Source: Candidatus Jordarchaeales archaeon
GTDB taxonomy: Archaea > Asgardarchaeota > Jordiarchaeia > Jordiarchaeales > Freyrarchaeaceae
Assembly (NCBI GenBank): GCA_038858525.1
Contig: JAWCFL010000002.1
Span: forward strand, 1-13,090
Reading direction: 5' to 3'
Length of the DNA stretch: 13,090 bases
Shown here: positions 1 through 13,090 of the stretch, in pieces
How the letters are laid out: each line of letters begins with the position of its first letter
How positions within the stretch are numbered: position 1 is the first letter of the stretch
Program-made: the position numbers and the translations under genes
The notes under the pieces: generated by a model
Seen by the model: the letters and a program-made list of their open reading frames with translations, nothing else
What the model was told of the DNA's origin: nothing
Databases searched by the model: none

Positions 1-57
1 GTTTCTGATGAAAACGAATTGGTGAAGTGGCAAATAATGAAGAAAAAAGACGAATGA
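1..57 (+). CDS. Possible 3' end of an upstream gene (…VSDENELVKWQIMKKKDE*), product unknown
   Basis: Frame 1 is open from the window edge to TGA at 55-57 with purine-rich, protein-like codons. It is too short to identify. Confidence 0.3.
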   Translation, partial: VSDENELVKWQIMKKKDE

Positions 58-134
58 ACGAGGGACGAAATTGACGAGAGAAGACATGTTACCGCAGGCG
101 GAAAACCTTAAGGGCGCGAAAATATCTGAACGAT

Positions 135-147
135 GAATAAAAAAGAG
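135..147 (-). terminator. Oligo-T terminator candidate for the hydrogenase cluster
   Basis: Minus strand reads CTCTTTTTTATTC about 12 nt after the stop of the NuoI-like gene. Confidence 0.4.
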
Positions 148-158
148 GTTGGGGGGCT

Positions 159-536
159 TTAGTCTTCCACTTCGATCCAGTTCATTTCGTCCTTGGAGTA
201 GGCTGCAAGCTCGTAGTCCTTTGTCATCTCGATGGCGCCGTTCGGACACGACAAAGTACATTGACCACAGAACATGCAGGCCGCCAGGAATATTTTGGGT
301 CTTTTTCCTGTTTTTGTTCTTTGTCCTTCGGGTCTGGTGTCTGGCACCATTGTTATCGCTCCTGTGGGGCAGTCTCTGGCACATAGGCTGCATCCATTGC
401 ACTTGTTAACGTGGTATATGTGTCTCCCGCGGTATCCTTCTGGGACTGGGAGTTTTTCGAAGGGATAGAATACTGTTGCCGGCTTTTTAGGTAGGTGTTT
501 GAGGAGTAAGGGGATTATGGCGGCTGGTCGAGGCAT
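159..536 (-). CDS. NuoI/MbhN/EchF-like 2x[4Fe-4S] ferredoxin subunit of a membrane-bound hydrogenase
   Basis: Two CxxCxxCxxxCP motifs (CNGCSLCARDCP, CMFCGQCTLSCP), N-terminal PATVFYPFEK…YRG, and SD GGGGAGGTG upstream. Confidence 0.93.
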   Translation of the reverse strand: MPRPAAIIPLLLKHLPKKPATVFYPFEKLPVPEGYRGRHIYHVNKCNGCSLCARDCPTGAITMVPDTRPEGQRTKTGKRPKIFLAACMFCGQCTLSCPNGAIEMTKDYELAAYSKDEMNWIEVED

Positions 537-551
537 CTTTATACACCTCCC

Positions 552-1844
552 CTATATAACACTTAAAGCGATCATTATTAGTATGGAGGCGGCTTTCCAC
601 TTGAAGAGGTCCAAGTAGACTGCTGCCTGTATAACTGCTATGTTAAGTATTGTTAGTGGGATAAGGTATTTCCATGCTCCGGCTTCTACTTGGTCTATTC
701 TAAACCTCGCAAACGCTGTTCTCAGGAGAGTTATCAGGAAGAGTACTGCAAAGAGTTTGATGAGGAACCAGCCTAGACCTATCATGTATCCTAGTGGTAG
801 GGCGCCGAGCATCCTTTCAAGGGGGGTTACTCCTATAGTGCTCCCCGGACCGTAAGGTCCTCCCAGGAATAGTGCGGCGGCCAAGCCTGCCCCAAATATC
901 ATTTCGAGGTCTCCTGCTGCCCTGAAGAGCGCCAGTTTCTTGCCTGAGATCTCAGTCTGCCATCCTGCAACTATCTCTGTGTGGGCCTCAGGTATGTCAA
1001 ATGGAACTTTCTCCATTTCAGCCATAAGTGATATGAGGAGCGAAGCGAATGATATCGGTGCCACCAGTATTATCGGCATCCTGGTGACTGCTTGGAACGC
1101 CGTAATGTTTCCTATAGTCAACACTTGCAGAGCTGAGAATGGCTGAAGCTGTAATATAGGAGCCACGTAAAAGGTCCAGAGCTCCGGCGCGAAGGTTGAA
1201 AGCAACAGGTATTGCTCGAAGGTTAATGCTGGAAGCTTCAACACTCCAATTAATGTTAGTATCTGAGCGACTTGTTGGGGGGTTGCCATGTAGCTTGCAA
1301 CGACAAACGCCGGCGTTATTGCGGATAGGGCTAATGGGACTTCGAAGGCTACAAGCTGCAAGCCCGACCTAACAGTTCCGATTTCTCCAAACCTGCTAGT
1401 CGTAAACCACCCTGTGAGGATCACTGTAACAGTGTACATTGTTGCCAGGAATATCACGAAGATAAGGTCTCCTTCGAAGCTTATTATTCCCGTTCCCTTA
1501 TAGACCGGCAGGAACATGACCATTGTGAGGGCTAAGGTGAAAGCCACTATGGGCGTCGCAGTCAGACTCTTAACGTCGGCCGCCCTATCTACGACGTCCT
1601 CTTTCGCCAGAAGCTTTATGAAGTCTGCCAGAGGCTGCAGGATGCCGTGCCATCCAGTGTAAAGGGGTCCAACACGGTGCTGAAGCCGCCCGTGAACCTT
1701 CCTGTCAAACCACTCGCCGAAGAGGGCTAGAGTAAACATGAAGAATGCTCCCGGAAACACTAGAATTTTAAATAGCTCCTTTACAGCTTCCAGAGCCGTA
1801 GGTTGTTGAGCGAACAAGTAAAGGAAAAGCATTTCCATGCTCAT
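552..1844 (-). CDS. NuoH/MbhM-like membrane subunit (about 430 aa, with a ~57-aa internal insertion)
   Basis: Motifs DRKVHGRLQHRVGP, GILQPLADFIKLLAKE, KVPFDIPEAHTEIVAGWQTE and RFRIDQ. The start was moved from 1910 to the ATG at 1844 because of the SD GGGGGATG and because the upstream 22 codons lie in an AT-rich promoter-like spacer. Confidence 0.92.
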   Translation of the reverse strand: MSMEMLFLYLFAQQPTALEAVKELFKILVFPGAFFMFTLALFGEWFDRKVHGRLQHRVGPLYTGWHGILQPLADFIKLLAKEDVVDRAADVKSLTATPIVAFTLALTMVMFLPVYKGTGIISFEGDLIFVIFLATMYTVTVILTGWFTTSRFGEIGTVRSGLQLVAFEVPLALSAITPAFVVASYMATPQQVAQILTLIGVLKLPALTFEQYLLLSTFAPELWTFYVAPILQLQPFSALQVLTIGNITAFQAVTRMPIILVAPISFASLLISLMAEMEKVPFDIPEAHTEIVAGWQTEISGKKLALFRAAGDLEMIFGAGLAAALFLGGPYGPGSTIGVTPLERMLGALPLGYMIGLGWFLIKLFAVLFLITLLRTAFARFRIDQVEAGAWKYLIPLTILNIAVIQAAVYLDLFKWKAASILIMIALSVI

Positions 1845-1945
1845 TTTTCCATCCCCCAGATAGGAGCACTGTCCTTCCTTCGTCCTCAACCATAATTTAT
1901 AGGTTTCCATTAAAAAATAAACTAAAAGTGTTTTTCATGGAGAAG

Positions 1946-3183
1946 TTACCACCGCTTCTCCTTCTCGTTGAACTCTCTGCTGTACCTTCGGAGCTCCTCC
2001 CTAGTCCAAGTCCAAGTCTTCTCCTTTTCAATGTCAATGAACGTGATCCTGTCCTCGCATGAGAAGCATGGGTCTATGGAAGCCAAAGCTATGGGTAAGT
2101 CTGCAATATAGCATCCCTTAAGGAGCTCTGCCACTGAGAGAATGTTCGCCATGGTCGGAGTCCTTATCTTAACCCTGTAAGGCTTATCAGTACCGTTGCT
2201 CTTCACGTAGTATATTAACTCGCCTCTCTGAGCCTCAAACCTAGCGTAAGCCTCCCCTTCAGGAACACGCCTTATGAGCTTCTCAGGCATAATGTCCCCC
2301 TTCTTAGGCATGTGGTCAAGGCACCACCTGATAATCTTAATGCTCTCGATAGTCTCAAGCACGCGCACAACCACTCTGCCAAAGGTATCACAAGTGTCCC
2401 ACGTGATAAGCTCAAAGTCCGCCTCGTCATACTTCAAGTGTGGGTCATTCTTCCTCACATCAAACTTGACTCCGGAAGCACGAATTGTAGGACCAACTGC
2501 CCCCAGCTTAACGCCAGTCACAGGGTCAAGGACACCCACGCCCTCAGTCCTCTTCCTCACCGTGCTCTCCTCAAGACACAGCTTCTTATAGTAGTTCGTT
2601 CTCTCCTCAAGGTAGTCGAGTCCCTTCCTAATTTTGTCAGCAAGCTCAGGAGAAATGTCCCGCCTCACACCGCCAAGAATATTCATTGCATAGTTAACCC
2701 TGTTACCCGAAATAGCCTCAAGCAGATCCATGACAACCTCTCTGTCCCTCCAAACATACATGAATAGCGTCTCAAATCCGATCTCCAGCCCAGCAGCACC
2801 AAGCCACAAAAGGTGACTATGAATCCTCTCCAACTCGGCAACTATAGTCCTAATGAAGTTCGCCTTTTCACTAACCTCGATCCCGCCAGCCTCCTCGGTA
2901 GCCATCATAAAAGTACACTGATGAGCGTTACTGCATATACCGCACACTCTTTCTACAAGGAAGGCCCCTTGAATATACGTCCTGTTTTCGAGTGCTTTCT
3001 CGATCCCCCTGTGGACGTATCCTATTCTGGGTTTTACGTCCACAACTGTTTCTCCTTCAACGAAGATCTGGAAATGCTCCGGCTCTTTTGCTCCCTTTAT
3101 TTGGTTTTTAGCTAAACGATGTTAGATAAAGGGATGTGCAAAGCCGGATGCTGCGGACCAACTGGTATTATTACTCGTGACAT
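1946..3183 (-). CDS. Group 4 [NiFe]-hydrogenase large subunit (NuoD/MbhL/EchE-like), two exons: join(3183-3136, 3085-1946), 395 aa after splicing
   Basis: L1 motif ERVCGIC and L2 motif DPCFSC are present, with an Mbh-like C-terminal extension and GYVHRGIEK. The ATG at 3183 has a perfect SD (GGAGGTG, 3200-3194) and encodes MSRVIIPVGPQHPALH. It rejoins EPEHFQIFVEGETVVDVKPRIG only after removal of 50 nt. Confidence 0.92.
3086..3135 (-). other. Predicted 50-nt BHB-type mRNA intron
   Basis: Minus strand: UCCGGCU-UUGC-AC|A-UCCCUUUAU…AUAAAGGGA-GCAA-AA|G-AGCCGGA. This gives a 7-bp exon helix, 4-bp central helix, two 3-nt bulges and a 9-bp intron helix. It contains an in-frame TAG (3114-3112) and shifts the frame. 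Confidence 0.88.
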
Positions 3184-3239
3184 TTTTTATTAGCACCTCC
3201 ATCAAGTTTAAAATATAAACGACCATATATTTGTTTTTC

Positions 3240-3719
3240 TTACTCCTGTGTTGGTTGCCAGTCCTTTCTGAGTGGGTAAACGCCTTCGGGCCAGTCTTCT
3301 GGGAGGATTAGGCGTTCCAGGTTTGGGTGTCCTTCGAACACTACGCCGAGGAGGTCATGGACTTCGCGTTCGTAGAAGTTGCTTGACGGCAGAATGTCGG
3401 TTATGGTTTCTAGTTTAGGGTTGGACTTGGGGACATATGTCCTCACCATGATGGCTGTTTGGGGTTCTTTGAACCTCCAGAGGTGGAATATTACTTCTAT
3501 GTTTTCTCCGAGGTCGACGCCTGTTATTGTGGAGACGTGCCATAGATCCCAGTTATCTCTCATGTACTCTACGGCTTTCCTGTGCGCTCCGGGCTTCACC
3601 TTTAGGTGGATTCTTCTTGGCCTTTTGATGTAAGCTTCTTCAAGTTGTGGTCCCAGGGCTGCTTTGAGCTCCTCGATAAGTTTTTCTTCGCTCTTAATTT
3701 CTTTCTTCTTTTTGCTCAT
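3240..3719 (-). CDS. NuoC/MbhK-like hydrogenase subunit
   Basis: Motifs HVSTITGVD, YEREVHDLLGVVFEGHP and LILPEDWPEGVYPLRKD, plus operon position. Confidence 0.93.
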   Translation of the reverse strand: MSKKKKEIKSEEKLIEELKAALGPQLEEAYIKRPRRIHLKVKPGAHRKAVEYMRDNWDLWHVSTITGVDLGENIEVIFHLWRFKEPQTAIMVRTYVPKSNPKLETITDILPSSNFYEREVHDLLGVVFEGHPNLERLILPEDWPEGVYPLRKDWQPTQE

Positions 3720-3729
3720 ATTACCCCCC

Positions 3730-4164
3730 CTACGATTTTTGGAGTTTGGCGAGGAGTTTGGCTACACCGTCTATTATTGCTTCAGGTTTGGGTGGGCATC
3801 CTGGGACGTAGACATCGACTGGGACGGCTGTGTCTATGCCTCCCTCTACTCCATAGCATCCCTTGAAGACCCCGCCTGTGCATGCGCAGTTGCCGACTGC
3901 CATAACGAACTTGGGGTCAGGAACTTGCTCGTAAAGCTTCCTAAATCTGGGTTTCATCTGCTTCGTGATTGGCCCTGTGCAGACGAGGACGTCGGCGTGT
4001 CTGGGGCTACCCATTAATATGATGCCGAAGCGTTCAACATCGAAGCGTGGCATTAACGCAGCTAGAATCTCTATGTCGCAGGCGTTACACCCACCAGTGT
4101 TTAGGTGAAGGATCCACGGTGATTTTGTTCTCGCCCACTTTACAAGCTTGCTGAGAAGACCCAT
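3730..4164 (-). CDS. NuoB/MbhJ/EchC-like [NiFe]-hydrogenase small subunit
   Basis: Motifs GGCNACDIE, SPRHADVLVCTG, AVGNCACTGG and YVPGCPPKPEAI. Confidence 0.95.
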   Translation of the reverse strand: MGLLSKLVKWARTKSPWILHLNTGGCNACDIEILAALMPRFDVERFGIILMGSPRHADVLVCTGPITKQMKPRFRKLYEQVPDPKFVMAVGNCACTGGVFKGCYGVEGGIDTAVPVDVYVPGCPPKPEAIIDGVAKLLAKLQKS

Positions 4165-4483
4165 TGTACCACTCCCAACGTGTTTACCATTTAAACTACC
4201 TTGACAGGGGAAGAATAGAATCGATCTCCCTTTTTTACTTTTTCGTTAAGAATATTTTGTTCGCTTTTTTGTTTGCATGGATAAGGAGCGTTAGCGCTAT
4301 AGTGCTTATCGGAACGATTCTTGTGATACAGGTTTACCGGATAGCTCTTTTTTCGAGAGTAGATTGTGTGTTTTGGCTTGTCATATGTAGGGGGTTAAGT
4401 GTCGTGTTATTTTTCTAGTTTATGTTAAAGTGCCCTTTTTGTTATTCTGGCATTTTCGTCATCATTACGAAAAAGTAAAAAGG

Positions 4484-4498
4484 GGGAAAGTTTTTAAT
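4484..4498 (+). promoter_or_regulatory. BRE/TATA promoter of the NuoA-like gene
   Basis: GGGAAAG-TTTTTAAT about 53 nt before the ATG at 4551. The same TTTTTAAT core preceded by purines recurs at 6044 and 7287. Confidence 0.5.
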
Positions 4499-4550
4499 TT
4501 GTGCGTCATAGTTGTTGATGGTCTTTCTTTGATTGCGTGGAGGTGGAGAA

Positions 4551-4868
4551 ATGTCTGGCCTGCTTACCTTGGGGATCGCTGTCCTAGTGAGTTTTCTGAT
4601 AGCGTGTGCGATTTACCTTACGGGAAGATTGATAGGTGCTAAGGGAGAGAAGACGCCGGGCAAGTTGGACCCTTACGCCTGTGGTGAGGATTATCCTCCT
4701 GAAAAGTTTCAGTACAGGGTGCACTTGGTTTACTACGCGATATTCTTCACATTGTTGGAGACCGCTGGTGTGATCGTGTTTACATCTTCTTTCAGTGACC
4801 CACTGTACGCGCTAATATACATGGTGTTCTTAGTAGTGGCGGCGCTCCTAGTCCTCTACAGGAGATAA
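4551..4868 (+). CDS. NuoA-like (complex I subunit A/3) membrane subunit, divergent from the hydrogenase cluster
   Basis: Three hydrophobic helices, loop KLDPYACGE (compare the YECG motif), YAIFFTLLE motif, and SD GGAGGTG before ATG 4551. Confidence 0.85.
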   Translation: MSGLLTLGIAVLVSFLIACAIYLTGRLIGAKGEKTPGKLDPYACGEDYPPEKFQYRVHLVYYAIFFTLLETAGVIVFTSSFSDPLYALIYMVFLVVAALLVLYRR

Positions 4869-4940
4869 TCTAATGAAGAGGCATCAATCCAGTTTGCCAC
4901 GCGAATAAAGTTCTTTTCCTCTTTTAAGTGCATGGTGATG

Positions 4941-4982
4941 TTTCTTTTTTGTTTTTTGTCTTTTGTTTCTGTTTTTTTGTTT
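4941..4982 (+). terminator. Long T-rich tract, likely terminator
   Basis: TTTCTTTTTTGTTTTTTGTCTTTTGTTTCTGTTTTTTTGTTT downstream of the NuoA-like gene. Confidence 0.45.
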
Positions 4983-5068
4983 GCGCGTTATTTCCCCTCT
5001 GCAGCTGACCATTGAGCTTTGGTTTCTCAAACGTAACAGTCATTTTAAGCGTGACTCTTAAGGCTGTC

Positions 5069-5081
5069 GAAAAATTATTTA
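5069..5081 (+). promoter_or_regulatory. Candidate BRE/TATA for the GcvH-like gene
   Basis: GAAAAA-TTATTTA about 40 nt upstream of the start. Confidence 0.35.
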
Positions 5082-5119
5082 GAGGGGTGGAAGCTACCTC
5101 TTTCGAGCGTTGATGGAGT

Positions 5120-5575
5120 GTGATTGGGTTGAAGTTTAAGTTTGAGCTTGAGGGCGAGACTGTTGAGGCGGAGCTTCCCGAGGATCTTTACTATCATCCT
5201 GACCATTGCTGGGCTAGAGTTGAAGGTGATAAGGTGAGGGTGGGCTTCGATGACTTTGGCCAGGTGACTGCTGGGCAGATCCTTTTCATCAGGCTTAAAC
5301 CTGCTGGCAAGGAGGTCAAGCAAAATGAGACCTTCGGCACTGTGGAGACGGGTAAGTGGGTTGGGCCTTTGAAGTCGCCAATCTCGGGGACGATAGCTGA
5401 GGTTAACCCGGAGATAAAGACGAACCCGTCACTGGTGAACAAGGATCCTTACGGAAAGGGGTGGCTAATACTGGTAAACCCGTCAAATTTAGAGAGGGAG
5501 CTCAAATCGCTCATTACGGGTGATGCTATAAAAGCGTGGATGGAGAAAGAAATTAAAGAAAGGCTGAAAAAATAA
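5120..5575 (+). CDS. gcvH: Glycine cleavage H-protein-like lipoyl carrier
   Basis: Motifs LYYHPDHCW, lipoyl-Lys motif VETGKWVGPLKSPISG, and NKDPYGKGW. The exact start is uncertain (GTG 5120 or TTG 5129). Confidence 0.9.
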   Translation: MIGLKFKFELEGETVEAELPEDLYYHPDHCWARVEGDKVRVGFDDFGQVTAGQILFIRLKPAGKEVKQNETFGTVETGKWVGPLKSPISGTIAEVNPEIKTNPSLVNKDPYGKGWLILVNPSNLERELKSLITGDAIKAWMEKEIKERLKK

Positions 5576-5745
5576 AACGAATTTATTCATCTGTTTTTCA
5601 TTTTTTGTGGTGGAAGGGTGGTGCGGTCTTCTAAACATTCAGAGGGGTTCCCCCTGTTTTTACATGCAAACTATTTTATGATGTGTCTGCTAGCGAGAAT
5701 GAGGTAAGTGTACTAACGGTTAATACGGTTAATATTATAATCCTG

Positions 5746-5924
5746 AGGGGGAAGCTTGTCTGCTTTTGGTTCAATGTGGAGGAAGGTGAGATAAAAGGAA
5801 CGTTAAACAATGATTTTGGGATGTACTAGGGGGAAGCTGAAAAGTTCGAGGAGAGATCAAGGAAGTTATGGGCTAGAAGGGGAAGCTGGTAGAAGTAATT
5901 TCCCATTACGATGAGGGGGAAGCA
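5746..5924 (+). repeat. Four dispersed copies of AGGGG(G)AAGC
   Basis: Copies at 5746, 5828, 5878 (4 G) and 5914, with an inverted partial copy TTCCCCCT at 5648-5655. Confidence 0.5.
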
Positions 5925-6036
5925 ATATTGTCCAGTGTAGTTTCAAAATGGGACCCATCAAGCTATACTTCGAGTAGTAGTGCAGAATTTTGAGTGGTAA
6001 AAAACAGTTTTCGTTATAGGTTTTATAGATTTTCTT

Positions 6037-6051
6037 GAAAAAATTTTTAAT
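6037..6051 (+). promoter_or_regulatory. BRE/TATA promoter of selD
   Basis: GAAAAAA-TTTTTAAT about 36-43 nt upstream of GTG 6087. Confidence 0.55.
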
Positions 6052-6086
6052 CGGTAGGAGAGAAGTGTTGCTGTGAAAGAAAGGGG

Positions 6087-7142
6087 GTGGAAAGGTTAGA
6101 GTACAGGATGACTAAGGTCGTAGCGCTTCACGGTTGAGCCTGCAAGGTCCCTCAAGCAAACCTAAGGATACTCCTGGAGAAGGCAGGAATCACCGTTCCG
6201 CGGAGTGTTCTGAGTGGCCCAGATGAGGACGCCGCCGTGATACGCATACGGGATGACATGGTTCTCGTGAAGACTATAGATTTCATAACGCCAAACGTTG
6301 ATGAAGGTTATGTTCAGGGGAAGATAGCGGCCGCGAATGCGACGAGTGACGTGTACAGCGCAGCCACGTGCGGGCTGCGTGCATAAGCAAAAGGAGCGAC
6401 GGAAATAGCTGGATTCTTAGCGGTTTTAGGAGTTCCTACTGATATGCCTTTAGAGATAGCGGTGGAGATTCTTCGTGGGATCAGAGATTACTTGGAAGAA
6501 GTTGGAGGATCCTTCGTTGGTGGGCACACCATATTTAACCCTTGGCCTCTTTCAGGTGGTGAAGTTACTGCTGTAGCTCACCCTGACCAGATCGTTTACC
6601 AGAGAGGCGCTAAGGTGGGGGATGTGTTCGTCTTGACCAAGCCGTTGGGGACTCAGCCAGCAATGGCCGTTTATAGGACCATTAAGGACCCAGATACTTG
6701 CGAAATGGTGCTTAGTGTGCTCTCAAGAAGAGAAGCGGAAGAGCTTGTTGAGAAGGCGATAAAGTTCATGACGACTTCTAATAAGCCAGTTGCTGAAGCT
6801 ATGCTGGAAGTTAAGCCCAACGCTGCAACGGACGTGACGGGCTTCGGGCTAGTGGGGCACGCTGAAAACATAGCTAGAGAAAGTGGAGTAGACGTTGAAA
6901 TACAGGCCATACCCGTTATGAAGAACGCGGTACAGGTTTCCGAGCTTTTTAGCTACGGGCTGGAGAGAGGTGAGGCGGCAGAGACGTCTGGTGGAATCTT
7001 AGTAGCACTGCCACGAAAAAGAGTTGACGAGTTCATGGATGCGCTAAGAAGCCGAGGAGTCACAGCTTACATCATTGGGGAAGCTAAGCAGGGCAATGGG
7101 AAGGTCACCGTGAAGCCGGATGTCGAATTAATAGAGGTTTAG
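6087..7142 (+). CDS. selD: Selenophosphate synthetase (selenoprotein, UGA 6135-6137 = Sec), two exons: join(6087-6356, 6387-7142), 341 aa after splicing
   Basis: MERLEYRMTKVVALHG-U-ACK matches the archaeal SelD LHGUACK motif. Also present: DEDAAV, KTIDFITP, AAANATSDVY|AKG, GGHT, LTKPLGTQ, TDVTGFGLVGH and AETSGG. The alternative start is ATG 6108. Confidence 0.93.
6357..6386 (+). other. Predicted 30-nt relaxed-BHB mRNA intron in selD
   Basis: GUGU-AC|A-GCGCAGCC-(ACGUGCG)-GGCUGCGU-GCAU-AA|G: an 8-bp intron helix and a 4-bp central helix with two G-U pairs. It contains an in-frame TAA (6384-6386). Removal restores SDVYAKG. Confidence 0.8.
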
Positions 7143-7164
7143 GTGATGAAGGGGGAAGATAAAG

Positions 7165-7213
7165 GCTGTTTCCTTCCACCAGAACCCCCACAGCAGTGGG
7201 CTGAGTAGACAGC
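7165..7213 (+). promoter_or_regulatory. Candidate archaeal-type SECIS in the selD 3' UTR
   Basis: Imperfect hairpin closed by GCTGT/ACAGC with core CA-GAA-CCC…GGG-C-TG. It resembles the archaeal GAA-SSS-loop-SSS-A core but has C in place of the 3' A. Confidence 0.4.
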
Positions 7214-7279
7214 AACAGGGCTATGCTAATTTTGGAATTTCATGGTCCAGCTGACCGTAACGTCTCGGAAGGAGGAAAA

Positions 7280-7294
7280 GGAAAAATTTTTAAT
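7280..7294 (+). promoter_or_regulatory. BRE/TATA promoter of the MarC-family gene
   Basis: GGAAAAA-TTTTTAAT about 41-48 nt upstream of ATG 7335. Confidence 0.5.
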
Positions 7295-7334
7295 TTCTGT
7301 CGCTTTTTTTCCCTAAAAACAATGACGTTGATTG

Positions 7335-7970
7335 ATGGTGGAATTTTTGCTTCCAGAAACCATAATGATAAACTTGATCTGCTCCCTGCCAGATTTGGTG
7401 AGAGCGTTCATTTCGTTGTTCGTGATAATGGACCCTGTAGGTAACATTCCGATCTTTCTGAGTCTTACGGAAGATATGAAACCAGAGGAAAGAAAGCGCA
7501 CGTTTCACCTCGCTCTTGTAACAGGGTTTATTCTGCTGATGTGCTTCGCCGCCCTAGGAAATTACATTTTGTTCCTTTTCGGAATAACCATAGAGAGCTT
7601 CATGATCGCCGGCGGAATACTCCTACTGGTGATCGCTTTGCGAATACTCATTCTCGGATGGAAAAGGGAGGAGTCGCTACCCTCCGAGAGCGTTGGTGTT
7701 GTCCCCATAGCTTGTCCCCTCCTAGTTGGCCCCGGAGCAATAACTACCGCCATAATGTACCTTCAAGCTTCAGGCGTCATAGTGACTACAACAGCAGTGA
7801 TTCTTTCGTTCATCGTCACTTGGCTCGTACTCAAGTTTATAGACCCGTTCAGCCGCTTTCTAGGCAAAACGGGAAGCCTTGTAATAGCACGAGTCATGGC
7901 GCTCATAATAGCAGCAATAGCAGTAGAACTCATAATTAAGGGAATAACATATATATTTAAGCCGTTTTGA
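7335..7970 (+). CDS. marC: MarC-family integral membrane protein
   Basis: Motifs FVIMDPVGNIPIF, FGITIESFMIAGGILL, VPIACPLLVGPGAIT and RVMALIIAAIAVE. The start could also be 7332 or further downstream. Confidence 0.9.
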   Translation: MVEFLLPETIMINLICSLPDLVRAFISLFVIMDPVGNIPIFLSLTEDMKPEERKRTFHLALVTGFILLMCFAALGNYILFLFGITIESFMIAGGILLLVIALRILILGWKREESLPSESVGVVPIACPLLVGPGAITTAIMYLQASGVIVTTTAVILSFIVTWLVLKFIDPFSRFLGKTGSLVIARVMALIIAAIAVELIIKGITYIFKPF

Positions 7971-8011
7971 GGGAGGCGCCCTCACAGTTTAACGTAAATT
8001 TTCCCTTTTCC
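7968..8011 (+). terminator. Hairpin plus pyrimidine tract after marC
   Basis: TGAGGG-AGGCG-CCCTCA followed by TTTTCCCTTTTCC, in the spacer between convergent genes. Confidence 0.3.
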
Positions 8012-8103
8012 TTCAAAGATGCTAAAACCAAGAAGTATTGTTACTTAAACGAAGTTGTCTGGAGAAAAGGAGGGATTTAACAAAAAGAGGGGGGAATCAG
8101 GGT

Positions 8104-9381
8104 TTACAGTTTCTCTATAGCTTTCCGAGCGGTCTTGCCACGTCCAAGCCGCTCATGTGCCTTAGCTAAGTGCCCTGCTGCTAAGGCACCAATCAGTGAG
8201 ACTTCGCCAGCTAGTGCTGCTGAACACGCTATTTCGGCGAATTTCCTTGCAAGTGTTCCGGGAGGCGCGCCTCTAATAAAGCCGCCTCCACAATCCATTA
8301 TGGACAGGGCCTCTTGATACTGTGGCAGCCACATGCCTCCCCCGATCGTTCCACATATCATCGACGGTAGTGTTAACGAGACATACAGGTCTCCGTTTTC
8401 GAGTACCTCAGCGGTCACTATCCCCATGCTACTCTCGCCTATGTGTGCTGCATCCTGTCCTGTAGCTAGCCATATGGCTGCAATTATGTTTGCGACGTGA
8501 GCGTTGAGGCCGTAGGCTGCAGCTTGTCCTGTTCCTATGTAAAGCTTCCTGTAGACTACTTCGACCATATCTTCGGGGGTGGTTTTCAGTACTTCTTTGA
8601 TGTATTCTCTTTTTAGCACGGCTTCCGCTTGCACGGTCTTTCCTCGGCCGAGGATGTAGTTAAGGGCTGAGGGCTTCTTGTCGACGCACATGTTGCCTGA
8701 AAGGGCTATGGTCTTCGCCCATGGGAACTGCTGTTCTATGTAGTTGCACACCTTGTCGCTTGCTGATGTAGCCATATTCATGCCCATGGCGTCTCCAGCT
8801 TCTGCCACGAACCGTACGAAGACGTTGCGCCCAATTATCCAGTGCTGGACGTCGACGAGTTTGAGAAATGGGTCGTCTCCTTCGAAAACCCTTTTTATTT
8901 CTTCGAAGTTTTGGTGTATCCACTCGACGAGTTTTACCGCGTGCTCCGTGTCAGGGACACATATGCATGGAGCTCTAGTTATCCCTGACTTTAGTACCCT
9001 TGCTCGCGCGCCGCCACTGGCTGTTATAGTGCGGCATCCCCTGTTAACGCTGGCTACGAGGGCGCCTTCAGTTGTGGCGAGCGGGATGAAATACTCGCCG
9101 TCCGCCACTTCACCTTTCACTCTTAGTGGTCCAGCTACTCCGAGGGGGATTTGCTGGACACCTATTGGGTTCTCGATGTTCCGGGATGCTGTCTCGTCGA
9201 GATTTATGGAGTAGCTTCCGATATGCCTAAGCTCTTTTCCCGTGATTTTTTCTATTGCCCTCCTCCTCACCCGCGCGGCGGCGTCTACACTACCCGTGTA
9301 TTTCTCTACTTCGTGAAGTTTTAATTCTCCTTTAACGAGTTTTTCGACAAGTTCTTCCTCCGACAACTCGAGACTAGTCAT
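8104..9381 (-). CDS. hmgA: Class I HMG-CoA reductase
   Basis: Motifs NIENPIG, LATTEGALVASVNRG, GDAMGMNM, SGNMCVDKK, TGQDAAH, GTIGGG and the C-terminal catalytic His (AHERLGR). Confidence 0.96.
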   Translation of the reverse strand: MTSLELSEEELVEKLVKGELKLHEVEKYTGSVDAAARVRRRAIEKITGKELRHIGSYSINLDETASRNIENPIGVQQIPLGVAGPLRVKGEVADGEYFIPLATTEGALVASVNRGCRTITASGGARARVLKSGITRAPCICVPDTEHAVKLVEWIHQNFEEIKRVFEGDDPFLKLVDVQHWIIGRNVFVRFVAEAGDAMGMNMATSASDKVCNYIEQQFPWAKTIALSGNMCVDKKPSALNYILGRGKTVQAEAVLKREYIKEVLKTTPEDMVEVVYRKLYIGTGQAAAYGLNAHVANIIAAIWLATGQDAAHIGESSMGIVTAEVLENGDLYVSLTLPSMICGTIGGGMWLPQYQEALSIMDCGGGFIRGAPPGTLARKFAEIACSAALAGEVSLIGALAAGHLAKAHERLGRGKTARKAIEKL

Positions 9382-9395
9382 TTTTTCACGCTCCT

Positions 9396-9815
9396 TTACT
9401 TTTTCTTTTCCACTTCTATTATTCCTTTTGATGAGTCTACTTTGACCCAGTCGCCTGTTTTTATCGATTCGACCGGGTCTGGGGTGACACGATGAATGAG
9501 GGGGATTCCCGCTACGACCGCTCCTATTAGTGTTACGGTGTCTGCTTTTCTCTGGATCATTGCTCTGGGAGCTAACCCCTTCTCTGCAAGGTTTATGATA
9601 ACATACGTGCCAACAGTTGAGCCGACACCCGTAGGGAAGACGAGCACGCGCCCAGCTACGCTCTCGCCCTCTAGGGGGTGGTTTTGGATGATGCCCGTCT
9701 CCGGGTTAACGTTGCCCAGAAAAGATATTGGAGACTCCGATACGAGGGCTTCCCCCTCAGCAACAGGTGACTTAAGGGCCTTTAAACCAAAACCCTTCAA
9801 GACGATTTTCGTCAT
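9396..9815 (-). CDS. DUF126 / AcnX swiveling subunit; probable phosphomevalonate dehydratase small subunit
   Basis: Motifs GEALVSESPISFLG, GRVLVFPTGVGSTVG and GAVVAGIP, adjacent to DUF521. Confidence 0.88.
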   Translation of the reverse strand: MTKIVLKGFGLKALKSPVAEGEALVSESPISFLGNVNPETGIIQNHPLEGESVAGRVLVFPTGVGSTVGTYVIINLAEKGLAPRAMIQRKADTVTLIGAVVAGIPLIHRVTPDPVESIKTGDWVKVDSSKGIIEVEKKK

Positions 9816-10984
9816 TGTTTAGACCCCAATGCCGCTTTCACACATTTCTCAGTTGGCTGAAGAGAAGCTTCCATCTTGTTCATTGAGGGAGCGTAATGGG
9901 CTGCTTTGGCGGAATCCGTCAACAGACCACTGAAGCCTTTTAACGGGGCAACTATGGGGCATGTGTCGCAGAAGACCTTTCCTCCAGCCCGCTCTATTTT
10001 CTGGACGAAGCCCATTTGCTCCCCGAGGCACTTAACCTGCCGGGAAGTGAAGATCCAGAGAGGAGTCTTAACCCGCTTCCCCTCAACGATTTCAGCCACT
10101 CTCCTCAACTCATATATTGAGTAGTGAGGGCAACCTAGCATAACGACGTCCGGTTCTCCCGTCAGGCTAAATGATTCAAAAACCTCATTAATTTCTCCTT
10201 TACCTATTTCTATTTTTTCTAGGTTTTCAGTTACCTCCACTGACCCCCAATAATACAAAGCAACTGCACCAGATGCTGCCGCGGCAGATGACAGGTGCTT
10301 TGCTTCAACTAGTGGGAGAGGATTATCGCTCTGTATCAGGGGGACTGCATCTCCGAAGTCTTTTCCGATAAGGTATCCCAGGGCGCCGTAATGTGTTGGG
10401 GACTCTAGGGCAACGTTGACTTTCACCCTTACGGTGGGAAGCCTGTTTTCATCTAAGTGGAGCCCGTAAAGAGGGGTTTTTCCCGTTATTGCTGATGCGA
10501 GGGCTGAAAGACCGCTTTCTCTGTTTGTCCGCGCGTTCAAGTATGAGTTGATGAAAGCGACAGCTGACGACTCTGCGAAGGAGACGTGAGCACCCCTAGC
10601 TGGAATATTTCCAGCTTCATACGGAGTGCAGCTACACGTCGCAAAAACACCCATTCTCTCGTAAAGAGAAATGATCTCCTTCTGCTTCTCAAAAAACGTT
10701 TCCTCGACCCCCATCTCCCTCCACCTTTCAAGATCCACTCCTCCCGGATTCAGTGTGGCGGGGATTAGCGTCCTGGATCCCAGAGAAGAGAATTTTTTTA
10801 GTGTTGTTAGGAGAGCGTCTCCCCCCGTTTTGTACGACACACCTGAAATGTGGGCGCTTTGTATTGGTATAAGGCGCTCTGCCTCAAAGAAGTCCCCTAA
10901 GGAGCAGAGCACCCTCATCGCTAGGCTTACCGCCTCGCCGTATTCGCCGTCCAGTGCCTTCTCCTCTTCTTTAGTCAGATACAT
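9812..10984 (-). CDS. DUF521 / AcnX catalytic subunit; probable phosphomevalonate dehydratase large subunit
   Basis: Motifs MYLTKEEE, AHISGVSY, TLNP, CSCTPY, AESSAV, NRESG, LGCPH, DTC and DSAKAAHY. The start is placed at ATG 10984 (MYLT). Confidence 0.9.
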   Translation of the reverse strand: MYLTKEEEKALDGEYGEAVSLAMRVLCSLGDFFEAERLIPIQSAHISGVSYKTGGDALLTTLKKFSSLGSRTLIPATLNPGGVDLERWREMGVEETFFEKQKEIISLYERMGVFATCSCTPYEAGNIPARGAHVSFAESSAVAFINSYLNARTNRESGLSALASAITGKTPLYGLHLDENRLPTVRVKVNVALESPTHYGALGYLIGKDFGDAVPLIQSDNPLPLVEAKHLSSAAAASGAVALYYWGSVEVTENLEKIEIGKGEINEVFESFSLTGEPDVVMLGCPHYSIYELRRVAEIVEGKRVKTPLWIFTSRQVKCLGEQMGFVQKIERAGGKVFCDTCPIVAPLKGFSGLLTDSAKAAHYAPSMNKMEASLQPTEKCVKAALGSKQ

Positions 10985-12272
10985 AATCCTCAACTCTTAT
11001 TAATTCATACCCGGGGATCCTAGCGGGAAGAAACTTCTCTCGCGGCTTGTCGAAGGGTATAGTGGCGTCAACCCCAACTTTAGTTGTCTCCCGTGTTCTC
11101 TGGTCAGCGGACGGGTCGAGCGATGACCCTTTGCCAGCAACTACGACGAGGTTCTTTGATGCTTGGAAGCGCGTAGCTATAGCGTACTCGACTGAGTATG
11201 GGTCGTGAATATCTATGTCTTCATCAACCACTACCACGTGCTTCAGTGACTTGTGCGCTCTGAAGGCCGCCTCTATCGCCTTCAATCCGTCGTCAGGATT
11301 CCTTTTCTTTATTTTAACAACGCAGTGGAGCCACGAGCACCCTCCAGGTGTTAGGAGGACATCCAGGCACTCGCAAAACTTACCGACTTCCCGGTATATT
11401 GCCGGTTCCCTAGGTAGACCCATGAGGATTCTATGCTCCATCCCTCCTGGAAGTATTGCTTGGTATATCGCGTCCTTCGCGTGAGTGAAGCGGCGCACCT
11501 CGACCACGGGTTGCTCCCGCACTATATCATATGTCCCTGTTATGTCTGGAAAGGGACCTTCCTCCACTAGTTCCTTGGTTATTCTTGCCTCTAGAAGTAT
11601 TTCAGCGTCGGCTGGAACCTCCAAGTCGACGGTCCTACATTTAGTGAGCTTCAATGGCTTTAAGCTGTTGGCTATAGTGTACTCGTCGACGTCGGGTGAA
11701 AGCGAGGTGGCTGCTGCAACGAGGACTGAGGGAGGGTTTCCTATGGTTATGGCGGCATCGAGCTCGCCTCCAGCCCGCTTAAGATACAAGTCTAAGTCCC
11801 TGTCTTCTACAACCCTTATAGCAAAGCGCTTTTCATCTAAAAGCATAAGTCTATGAAAGCTAATGTTACGTCCGTACTCAGGATCACGCACAGTGACCAC
11901 GCCAGCAGTCACGTATGGTCCACCATCTCGCTCCATATGGGTCAGTATAGGGAGGCGGGTCAGGTCTAGGGGCTCAACAACCTCGAAGCAACGTCCGTCG
12001 CTTACTACTTCTGGCTCTGTCGGGTTTTCCATGGCTTCAGCGATCCTTCTCAGAAGGCCTTGGACCGATACGCCAAGCCCTCCTGCCAGCAGTTCCCTGC
12101 TCGAACACAGATTTCCTGCCACCCTAAACTTGCTTCCCTTAACATTCTCGAAGATTATAGGTTTACCATCAACTTTCTTCATCAAAGCAGGGATTTCGTA
12201 TCTGGTTGATACAAGCTTCTTGACTTTGATAAGAAGCCCTTTTTCCTCTAGCCAAGACAGGAAGTTTCTCAT
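10971..12272 (-). CDS. UbiD-family prFMN-dependent decarboxylase; probable trans-anhydromevalonate 5-phosphate decarboxylase
   Basis: Motifs DGGPYVTAG, EGPFPD, VVVVDEDIDI, AIATRFQ, GSSLDPS and KVGVDAT. The specific function is inferred from the mevalonate-operon context. Confidence 0.88.
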   Translation of the reverse strand: MRNFLSWLEEKGLLIKVKKLVSTRYEIPALMKKVDGKPIIFENVKGSKFRVAGNLCSSRELLAGGLGVSVQGLLRRIAEAMENPTEPEVVSDGRCFEVVEPLDLTRLPILTHMERDGGPYVTAGVVTVRDPEYGRNISFHRLMLLDEKRFAIRVVEDRDLDLYLKRAGGELDAAITIGNPPSVLVAAATSLSPDVDEYTIANSLKPLKLTKCRTVDLEVPADAEILLEARITKELVEEGPFPDITGTYDIVREQPVVEVRRFTHAKDAIYQAILPGGMEHRILMGLPREPAIYREVGKFCECLDVLLTPGGCSWLHCVVKIKKRNPDDGLKAIEAAFRAHKSLKHVVVVDEDIDIHDPYSVEYAIATRFQASKNLVVVAGKGSSLDPSADQRTRETTKVGVDATIPFDKPREKFLPARIPGYELIRVEDYVSD

Positions 12273-12302
12273 GATACTCTAGGCACCTCTCGAAGTTACA
12301 GC

Positions 12303-12725
12303 CTAGCACTTTCTTTCTGGAGCACCATTAGCATTTAAAATTGGCCTAAACTTGTAGCCGTAGTATATGGGTCCTTCCCGCCCATTTTCCTTTACTTTCC
12401 TTATCACGGCTTCTACGTCTACGTCTAGGTCTAGCTTGTTAGGGTCTGCGTCAGTTATTTGTGCCGTTATATGTGTTCCGTCTTCAAGCCTGACGAGGCC
12501 AACTATGTAGGGAGTGTAAAGCTCAAACCCCTTGGGCGGGGTGTGTATCACGGTATACGTCACCAGTTTCCCTTTCGTTGGAAGCTTCTTCTTTTCTAGC
12601 TCCCTTGAACCGCACTCGGTGCACAGTTCCCTCGGAGGGAAGTATGTCGTTGAGCACTTAGGACAGAAAACCGCCTCGAGGCGGTACCTTTGAGGAATTT
12701 CTCTCCAGAGGTTGGACGGCAACAT
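12303..12725 (-). CDS. DUF35 Zn-ribbon/OB-fold scaffold partner of thiolase and HMG-CoA synthase
   Basis: CPKC…CTEC zinc ribbon, WREIPQRYRL and YGYKFRP motifs, SD GAGGTG before ATG 12725, and position directly after thiolase. Confidence 0.92.
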   Translation of the reverse strand: MLPSNLWREIPQRYRLEAVFCPKCSTTYFPPRELCTECGSRELEKKKLPTKGKLVTYTVIHTPPKGFELYTPYIVGLVRLEDGTHITAQITDADPNKLDLDVDVEAVIRKVKENGREGPIYYGYKFRPILNANGAPERKC

Positions 12726-12735
12726 ATTAAACACC

Positions 12736-13090
12736 TCACTTAGCTTTAAACACGTGAACTATAGCGGACGTACCAAATCCACTTGTGTTGTGTGACAGCC
12801 CTATTCGGGCATCCGGCACCTGCCTTTTACCAGCGTCACCACGCAACTGGAGAACTATTTCTGCGGCCTGGTATATTCCAGTCGCTCCTATCGGGTGGCC
12901 GCGCGCCTTTAATCCCCCGGATGGGTTTATCGGTATTTCACCGTCTAGGCTTATCAAGCCTTCCTCCACCGCCATCCATCCTTCACCCTTCCTCACGAAG
13001 CCAAGATCCTCTATGGCTAAGATCCCAGCTATCGAGAAAGAGTCGTGAACTTCTGCCACATCCACGTCCTCGGGGGTTATGTTAGCCATC
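12736..13090 (-). CDS. Acetoacetyl-CoA thiolase (archaeal type), C-terminal part; truncated by the window edge
   Basis: Motifs [27 protein letters not shown] and QLRG…RQV. Confidence 0.93.

Follow-up and report, generated by a model that had tools for sequence, protein, structure and literature searches.

How can an archaeon make the selenophosphate synthetase SelD from a gene whose conserved SDVYAKG motif is broken by 30 nucleotides (nt) that end in an in-frame stop codon? The question is raised by selD in the window analysed here, a stretch of 13,090 nt from Candidatus Jordarchaeales archaeon (GCA_038858525.1, contig JAWCFL010000002.1, positions 1-13,090, forward strand; G+C about 48%). The host, of class Jordiarchaeia in the phylum Asgardarchaeota, is represented by a metagenome-assembled genome (MAG) of 2.09 Mb in 63 contigs that is 92.7% complete. 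We consider it very likely that these 30 nt, at 6357-6386 in the selD coding sequence, form an archaeal intron of the endonuclease type, of the bulge-helix-bulge (BHB) kind and class HBh', and the selD mRNA very probably needs splicing by the tRNA-splicing endonuclease EndA and by RtcB.

The insert and the gene it interrupts

The selD gene lies on the plus strand at 6108-7142, from ATG 6108 to TAG 7140-7142. Its exon 1 (6108..6356, +) has 83 codons, translated as MTKVVALHG-U-ACK ... NATSDVY, and carries an in-frame TGA (6135..6137, +) at the catalytic selenocysteine (Sec)/Cys position; exon 2 (6387..7142, +) comprises 251 codons and the stop. The product has the Pfam domains AIRS and AIRS_C and the N-terminal Sec/Cys-x-x-Lys loop, here HG-U-ACK, and is collinear with the structures 2YYE, 3FD5 and 3U0O, as expected of the SelD family. 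The TGA is retained at the Sec position in all Asgard selD homologues examined, intron-bearing or intron-less, and the names on the nearest public proteins to the window SelD are Jordarchaeales, Freyrarchaeum and Freyarchaeota.

The insert occupies 6357..6386 (+; AGCGCAGCC...GCATAA), between TAC (Tyr83, 6354-6356) and GCA (Ala, 6387-6389), where the preliminary description had placed it, and its last triplet is the in-frame TAA that interrupts SDVY|AKG. Read without splicing, the gene gives 92 aa from ATG 6108; the 99 aa reported earlier hold only for a start at GTG 6087. Removal of the 30 nt by cuts at AC|A and AA|G yields, by computed translation, ...NATSDVY|AKGATEIAGF... and an uninterrupted protein of 334 residues.

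Comparison with known SelD proteins places the junction precisely. The Pfam AIRS profile matches with positions 2-48 in exon 1 and 49-100 in exon 2, which also holds AIRS_C, and is split 48|49 exactly at the junction. Residues 23-114 of human SPS1 (3FD5) align to exon 1 and residues 116-375 to exon 2, from the second residue of the latter, and residues 14-94 of Aquifex SelD (2YYE) align to exon 1, the match ending ...ALSDVY94. Because the Pfam, 3FD5 and 2YYE matches are contiguous at the junction, the insert has been added cleanly, at a single phosphodiester bond, to a gene that is collinear in all other respects; the earlier proposal that excision of 30 nt restores a collinear SelD is borne out by a Pfam domain and solved structures that run without a gap over the junction. 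No start codon lies ahead of the conserved AKGATEIAGF segment of exon 2, whose first 19 conserved residues (AKGATEIAGFLAVLGVPTD) begin directly after the insert, so this part of the protein can be made only as a continuation of exon 1.

In the host genome, at its 92.7% completeness, selD is a single copy, the two weaker matches being different AIRS-family proteins. An intact second selD, named in the preliminary description as grounds for abandoning the intron, was not found. A check for a mobile or repeated origin detected no second copy of the intron in the host genome.

Either GTG 6087 or ATG 6108 could be the start of selD (region 6087-6110). In Freyrarchaeaceae and other Asgard homologues the position of Met1 is taken by Leu (CTG or TTG), after a conserved Arg codon, which suggests that selD has a non-ATG start in Freyrarchaeaceae and in the other Asgard lineages with Leu at this position.

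Fold and conservation of the insert

RNAfold returned the proposed structure, consisting of a central helix H, a bulge and an intron hairpin h', as both its minimum free energy and its centroid fold, reproducing the 8-bp hairpin, the GUGU/GCAU helix and the bulges ACA and AAG that had been drawn from the sequence. The 5' strand of H, GUGU (6351..6354, +), is exonic and consists of the Val codon and the first base of the Tyr codon, and the 3' strand, GCAU (6381..6384, +), belongs to the intron; the pairs are G6351.U6384, U6352-A6383, G6353-C6382 and U6354.G6381. The 5' strand is followed by a three-nt bulge, ACA (6355..6357, +; A6355 C6356 A6357), with the predicted cut after C6356, and then by h' (6358..6380, +), in which 6358-6365 pairs with 6373-6380 to give 8 bp (7 Watson-Crick and 1 G.U) closed by a 7-nt loop. 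The 3' cleavage triplet AAG (6385..6387, +; A6385 A6386 G6387), with the predicted cut after A6386, has no closing exon-exon helix.

Such an outer helix defines the strict hBHBh' form. The exon columns adjacent to H (9 and 51) are unpairable in all the sequences aligned, and no outer helix appears in the RNAalifold prediction, in keeping with the relaxed motif described earlier. Without an exon-exon helix the motif falls into class HBh' and not strict hBHBh', a nomenclature that is reportedly that of Marck and Grosjean. Class HBh' is scored as canonical in recent work on Asgard tRNA introns (bioRxiv 10.64898/2026.10.13.758758). The intron region has no match in Rfam.

A comparison of selD among sister genomes, put forward in the preliminary description as a check on the presence of the insert and on compensation in its hairpin, was made with 20 distinct sequences from Jordi- and Freyrarchaeaceae. 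Drawn from NCBI, ENA, JGI and Logan assemblies, with a closed 3.6-Mb genome among them, these are the window, 9 genomes of the class and 10 sequences from metagenome contigs (11 loci, two of them identical) that were reached via truncated SelD proteins; of the 10 class genomes besides the window, G001 was left out, as its contig ends at residue 61 of exon 2. The insert stands at the same codon in 20/20 sequences, including all 9 of the class genomes with an assembled junction. It is mostly 30 nt long, but G002 has 31 nt, L029 has 32 nt and G003 has 34 nt, and the variation in length is restricted to the hairpin loop. Inserts of 31, 32 and 34 nt shift the frame, and the final triplet is CAA, not TAA, in G003 and in the contig behind the public protein P0127. 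With three lengths that shift the frame and two variants that lack the stop, the insert cannot be translated through, and the conserved feature is neither a stop codon nor an in-frame reading.

The fold is kept throughout. Across H, the bulge and h', all 240 pair cells are paired in the 20 sequences (H 80/80, h' 160/160), and 6 of 8 pairs in the hairpin have compensatory double changes; in Freyrarchaeaceae the hairpin reads AUGUAAAU/AUUUACAU and has almost no sequence in common with GCGCAGCC/GGCUGCGU. The covariation score was reached by none of 500 shuffles, pairing fell to 13-64% in a control in which partners were slid by 1-3 columns, and RNAalifold, given the alignment alone, predicted the same 12 pairs and no others. 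The only changes in the 3' strand of H are GCAC and ACAU, each of which turns a G.U into a Watson-Crick pair. The 5' bulge is A-Y-A in every sequence and the 3' triplet is A-A-G in 19/20, with A-G-G in the remaining one. All 20 sequences with the intron have GTG as the Val codon within H, whereas third positions next to it are free to vary; intron-less relatives (L016-L019), in which the insert is absent at the junction, have CTC, GTG or GTC at that position. The preliminary description had also drawn a competing register, UGUA/UGCA, that would excise 28 nt and shift the frame. The frameshift stands, but we rejected the register as a working alternative: its extra A-U pair, A6355 with 6380, is A.C in 5/20 sequences.

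At each 3-nt site EndA cleaves behind the second nucleotide. Cleavage of this kind, at AC|A and AA|G, brings all four length variants (30, 31, 32 and 34 nt) back into frame as SDVY|A(K/M/I)G. If both cuts are moved by -1 a TAA arises, and if they are moved by +1 the Ala shared by every homologue aligned is lost to another residue; removal is needed at exactly these positions.

Both flanking parts of the gene are under purifying selection. Among intron-bearing species the ratio of nonsynonymous to synonymous substitution (dN/dS) is 0.04-0.06 in exon 1 and 0.05-0.10 in exon 2, values tempered by a dS of 1.0-2.4 between species of the same genus, at which synonymous sites are near saturation. Such low ratios on both exons indicate that each is translated in its own frame in every lineage. 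Matches to selD were found in 142 of 301 sampled genomes of the phylum. Among the matches listed, to which 15 weaker ones do not belong, a truncated frame of 251-256 aa occurs only in the two families of the host class, and those listed from five other Asgard families (f7, f9, f13, f16 and f23) have an open frame of 300-330 aa from the Sec codon. The simplest history is one gain at the base of the host class, with no loss in the lineages sampled; most likely a single acquisition by the ancestor of class Jordiarchaeia (Jordi- and Freyrarchaeaceae) gave rise to the intron, which its descendants have kept.

Splicing enzymes and competing explanations

The enzymes for such splicing are present in the host genome, which encodes two EndA paralogues, of 191 and 198 aa, and one RtcB (601 bits). 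The first EndA is closest to the catalytic alpha subunit of Aeropyrum pernix (3P1Z_B, E = 1.6e-48), has the Tyr/His/Lys residues, and can be aligned across the Crenarchaea-specific loop, in which its K-P-K corresponds to K44-P-R46 of A. pernix. The loop lysine K44 confers cleavage of bulge-helix-loop (BHL) substrates (PMC3241643), and enzymes of this type have Arg or Lys at position 46 (PMC12397907). The second paralogue has Ala at the catalytic His position in an alignment to the Methanopyrus enzyme, as a structural beta subunit would. A two-paralogue EndA of the (alpha-beta)2 type is common across Asgard genomes, and Jordi- and Freyrarchaeaceae have the heaviest tRNA-intron load among the Asgard families compared, with a median tRNA intron length of 22-23 nt in the class (bioRxiv 10.64898/2026.10.13.758758). 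In the genome paper on Freyarchaeia and Atabeyarchaeia, 92-95% of tRNA genes are interrupted.

In the proposed mechanism the exon GUGU would pair with the terminal GCAU of the intron in the transcript, and the 8-bp hairpin of the intron would stack on this central helix across the ACA bulge, leaving the second cut site, AA|G, directly 3' of the helix. EndA, with a catalytic alpha subunit that carries the broad-specificity loop and a structural beta subunit, would then cut after the second nucleotide at both sites, and RtcB would join the exons to UAC|GCA, from which the uninterrupted 334-residue selenoprotein SelD could be translated. Because the whole class retains the insert at one and the same codon, with base changes that compensate each other, the mRNA very probably has to be cut and rejoined by the tRNA-splicing enzymes. 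The intron interpretation of the preliminary description is supported on each of its sides, by the position of the insert, its HBh' geometry, the restored protein, the sole copy of selD, conservation and purifying selection.

Several points weigh against this interpretation. The outer exon-exon helix is absent and 2 of the 4 central pairs are G.U, which would make the motif a weak substrate. By its energy the fold does not stand out from shuffled sequence (z = 0.28), and a strict motif scan of the genome (4-bp H, AYA bulge, stem of at least 7 bp, ARG) gave 9 matches, against 3-4 per shuffled genome, too small an excess to count as evidence; a single sequence therefore proves little, and the better-than-chance case rests on the very strong comparative data. 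The host appears to encode a hetero-oligomeric EndA, the type known to cut relaxed motifs; for this lineage the specificity is predicted, and the cleavage and ligation of the selD transcript themselves are what we infer.

The strict scan also gave seven further matches, at C3:27677-27716 (+), in C4, C11, C13 and C22, at C43:2342-2374 (+) and at C52:441-475 (-). These may be mostly noise, as about 4 are expected by chance.

Spliced forms were sought in public data. The predicted spliced junction is GACGTGTAC|GCAAAAGGA in the window selD and GATGTGTAT|GCAATAGGC in Freyrarchaeum, and a degenerate pattern of this junction that takes in most of the variants in Jordi- and Freyrarchaeaceae had no match in JGI metagenome contigs. 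The public SelD proteins of Jordarchaeales and Freyrarchaeaceae that were examined (P0001-P0026, P0121-P0159) are truncated to 232-250 aa and start inside exon 2, with the exception of P0127. No junction-spanning protein was found among close relatives, the 120 best matches and 10 clusters all being truncated at or after the insert, and a low-sensitivity search found no longer proteins matching exon 1. P0127 (268 aa) was considered as a spliced form and rejected, since it reads through a stop-less 31-nt variant of the intron in a shifted frame.

These truncated annotations are what would be expected if selD were a split gene, in which polypeptides of 83 and 251 residues assemble and the hairpin is an intercistronic element: gene callers, like the public annotation, give the 3' part as a separate SelD of 232-250 aa, and purifying selection acts on both parts. 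However, neither a start codon nor a ribosome-binding site precedes the first 19 residues of exon 2, and the break would fall inside one AIRS domain, two residues past the SDVY Asp, which is invariant in all homologues aligned. The tails with which exon 1 would end are wholly unlike between species (SAATCGLRA, SAATVIGVARTSEGG..., NVNHNDLHA), and a spacer is not expected to preserve a BHB-shaped fold through compensatory changes. We regard a split gene as very unlikely. Decay of selD, or an insert produced by sequencing or assembly and absent from the real DNA, might be suspected from an in-frame TAA in a conserved motif of a 63-contig MAG. This hardly merits consideration: the 20 distinct sequences that share the insert come from NCBI, ENA, JGI and Logan, a closed 3.6-Mb genome among them, dN/dS is 0.04-0.10 on both sides of it, the Sec codon is retained, a structured element follows the stop in 7 Jordarchaeales sequences and no other selD was found in the genome.

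A ribosome might instead bypass the insert on an uncut mRNA, as in T4 gene 60, leaving at the Tyr codon, skipping the hairpin and landing before GCA. The codon at which the ribosome would leave is followed directly by a stable hairpin, the gap contains a stop in most variants, and the UAA before exon 2 shares two of its three bases with the Tyr codons UAC and UAU. The codons are nevertheless not matched, with UAC or UAU at take-off against a landing triplet that is mostly UAA, UAG in one variant and CAA in at least two, and the changes in the landing triplet are exactly those that strengthen or preserve H and the bulge geometry. A conserved 4-bp helix at a three-nt bulge spacing would serve no role in bypass, the gap varies from 30 to 34 nt, and a hydrogenase gene 3 kb away, described below, contains what appears to be a canonical BHB intron with identical bulges. 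We give bypass only a very slight chance, and an intron spliced by EndA and RtcB is the reading followed here.

Related systems, neighbouring elements and implications

The closest known case is the cbf5 pre-mRNA intron of Crenarchaeota, found in Aeropyrum, Sulfolobales and Desulfurococcales (Watanabe 2002; Yokobori 2009, PMC2738675). Like it, the selD intron is a short BHB-type intron in a coding sequence that is inherited vertically across a whole clade, in a host with hetero-oligomeric EndA; the cbf5 intron is removed by the tRNA-splicing endonuclease, as is presumed for that of selD. The two differ in gene and phylum, selD belonging to class Jordiarchaeia of the Asgardarchaeota, and in the lack of an outer helix (HBh') in selD; moreover, cbf5 shows intron losses, whereas none is seen for selD in the sampled lineages. 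The splicing of cbf5 has been demonstrated experimentally, while that of selD is predicted. The selD intron shares geometry, size and enzyme type with the non-canonical HBh' and BHL tRNA introns that are cut by (alpha-beta)2 EndA (PMC3241643, PMC12397907), but its substrate is a translated, UGA-recoded mRNA, in which the exon half of the motif is constrained by the Val-Tyr codons and not by a tRNA fold. The BHB intron in the 5' untranslated region (UTR) of Haloferax volcanii HVO_1309 is likewise a case of EndA acting on mRNA, although there the intron lies in the untranslated leader and the reading frame is intact (PMC7714728).

In how it would work, the selD intron also resembles eukaryotic HAC1/XBP1 splicing by Ire1 and RtcB, with a small, spliceosome-independent intron, cuts defined by hairpins, joining by RtcB and an effect on the reading frame. 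The XBP1 intron is 26 nt, and Ire1, the HAC1/XBP1 nuclease, is stress-regulated. The nuclease for selD would be EndA, not Ire1, and nothing here shows regulation; this is a resemblance and not membership. SelD supplies the selenophosphate for every selenoprotein, itself included. Intron removal could conceivably go beyond constitutive housekeeping and be a control point at which the level of EndA/RtcB-spliced selD mRNA sets the selenocysteine capacity of the cell. We think this unlikely; if true, it would be an archaeal counterpart of Ire1/RtcB-controlled HAC1/XBP1 splicing and would explain why a weak motif without an outer helix has stayed unchanged across the class.

A second insert in the window, of about 50 nt at 3078-3149 (-), interrupts the N-terminus of a group-4 [NiFe] hydrogenase large-subunit gene (1946-3043 plus an upstream exon). 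Folded by eye it is a canonical hBHBh' motif, with a 6-bp exon helix CCGGCU/AGCCGG, the helix H UUGC/GCAA and bulges ACA and AAG, and cuts in the same register give GPQHPALH|EPEHF. It shares host, size range and bulges with the selD intron, but the full 6-bp exon-exon helix is found in the hydrogenase gene only. ARAGORN predicted no tRNA in the window.

Downstream of selD, the 3' UTR contains a structured element (7142..7200, +) that is a candidate selenocysteine insertion sequence (SECIS). It consists of a helix with GGUGAUGA on the 5' side and CCAGAACC on the 3' side, resembling tandem G.A pairs, followed by an invariant hairpin, CCCAC-AGCAG-GUGGG, with the stem CCCAC/GUGGG. RNAalifold applied to 7 Jordarchaeales sequences gave 17 pairs, 4 of them with compensatory changes; Rfam has no match for the element. 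SECIS elements of eukaryote-like type (eSECIS) have been described for Asgard selD with a similar 3' UTR layout (PMC11227280), and this element is probably such a eukaryote-like SECIS.

The best match to tRNA-Sec (RF01852) in the host lies at G000:C12:55570-55679 (-), locus L041, scoring 31 bits, below threshold, and spanning 110 nt against a model of 91 positions; it is possibly a tRNA-Sec gene with an intron of its own. SepSecS is matched with 88.8 bits, by a family that also matches organisms without Sec. With the one below threshold and the other unspecific, neither is used as support.

In the literature searched for BHB introns in archaeal protein-coding genes, cbf5 is the sole case within a coding sequence (PMC2738675, PMC7714728), beside the Haloferax intron in a 5' UTR. 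The Asgard selenoproteome paper covers Jordarchaeia and SelD and never uses the word intron, and the genome paper on Freyarchaeia and Atabeyarchaeia has selenophosphate synthetase among the selenoproteins and discusses introns for tRNA only. The selD intron is not reported in the literature searched, and it extends the cbf5 kind to a new phylum and to a Sec-recoded gene. Together with the hydrogenase intron 3 kb away, it suggests that the tRNA-splicing machinery routinely acts on mRNAs in Jordiarchaeia. One mRNA would need two layers of recoding, UGA to Sec and splicing. In the phylum of archaea that stands nearest to the eukaryotes, a gene central to selenium metabolism would have been inexpressible without such splicing since the origin of the class. 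This bears on how gene expression tolerant of introns could precede the spliceosome.
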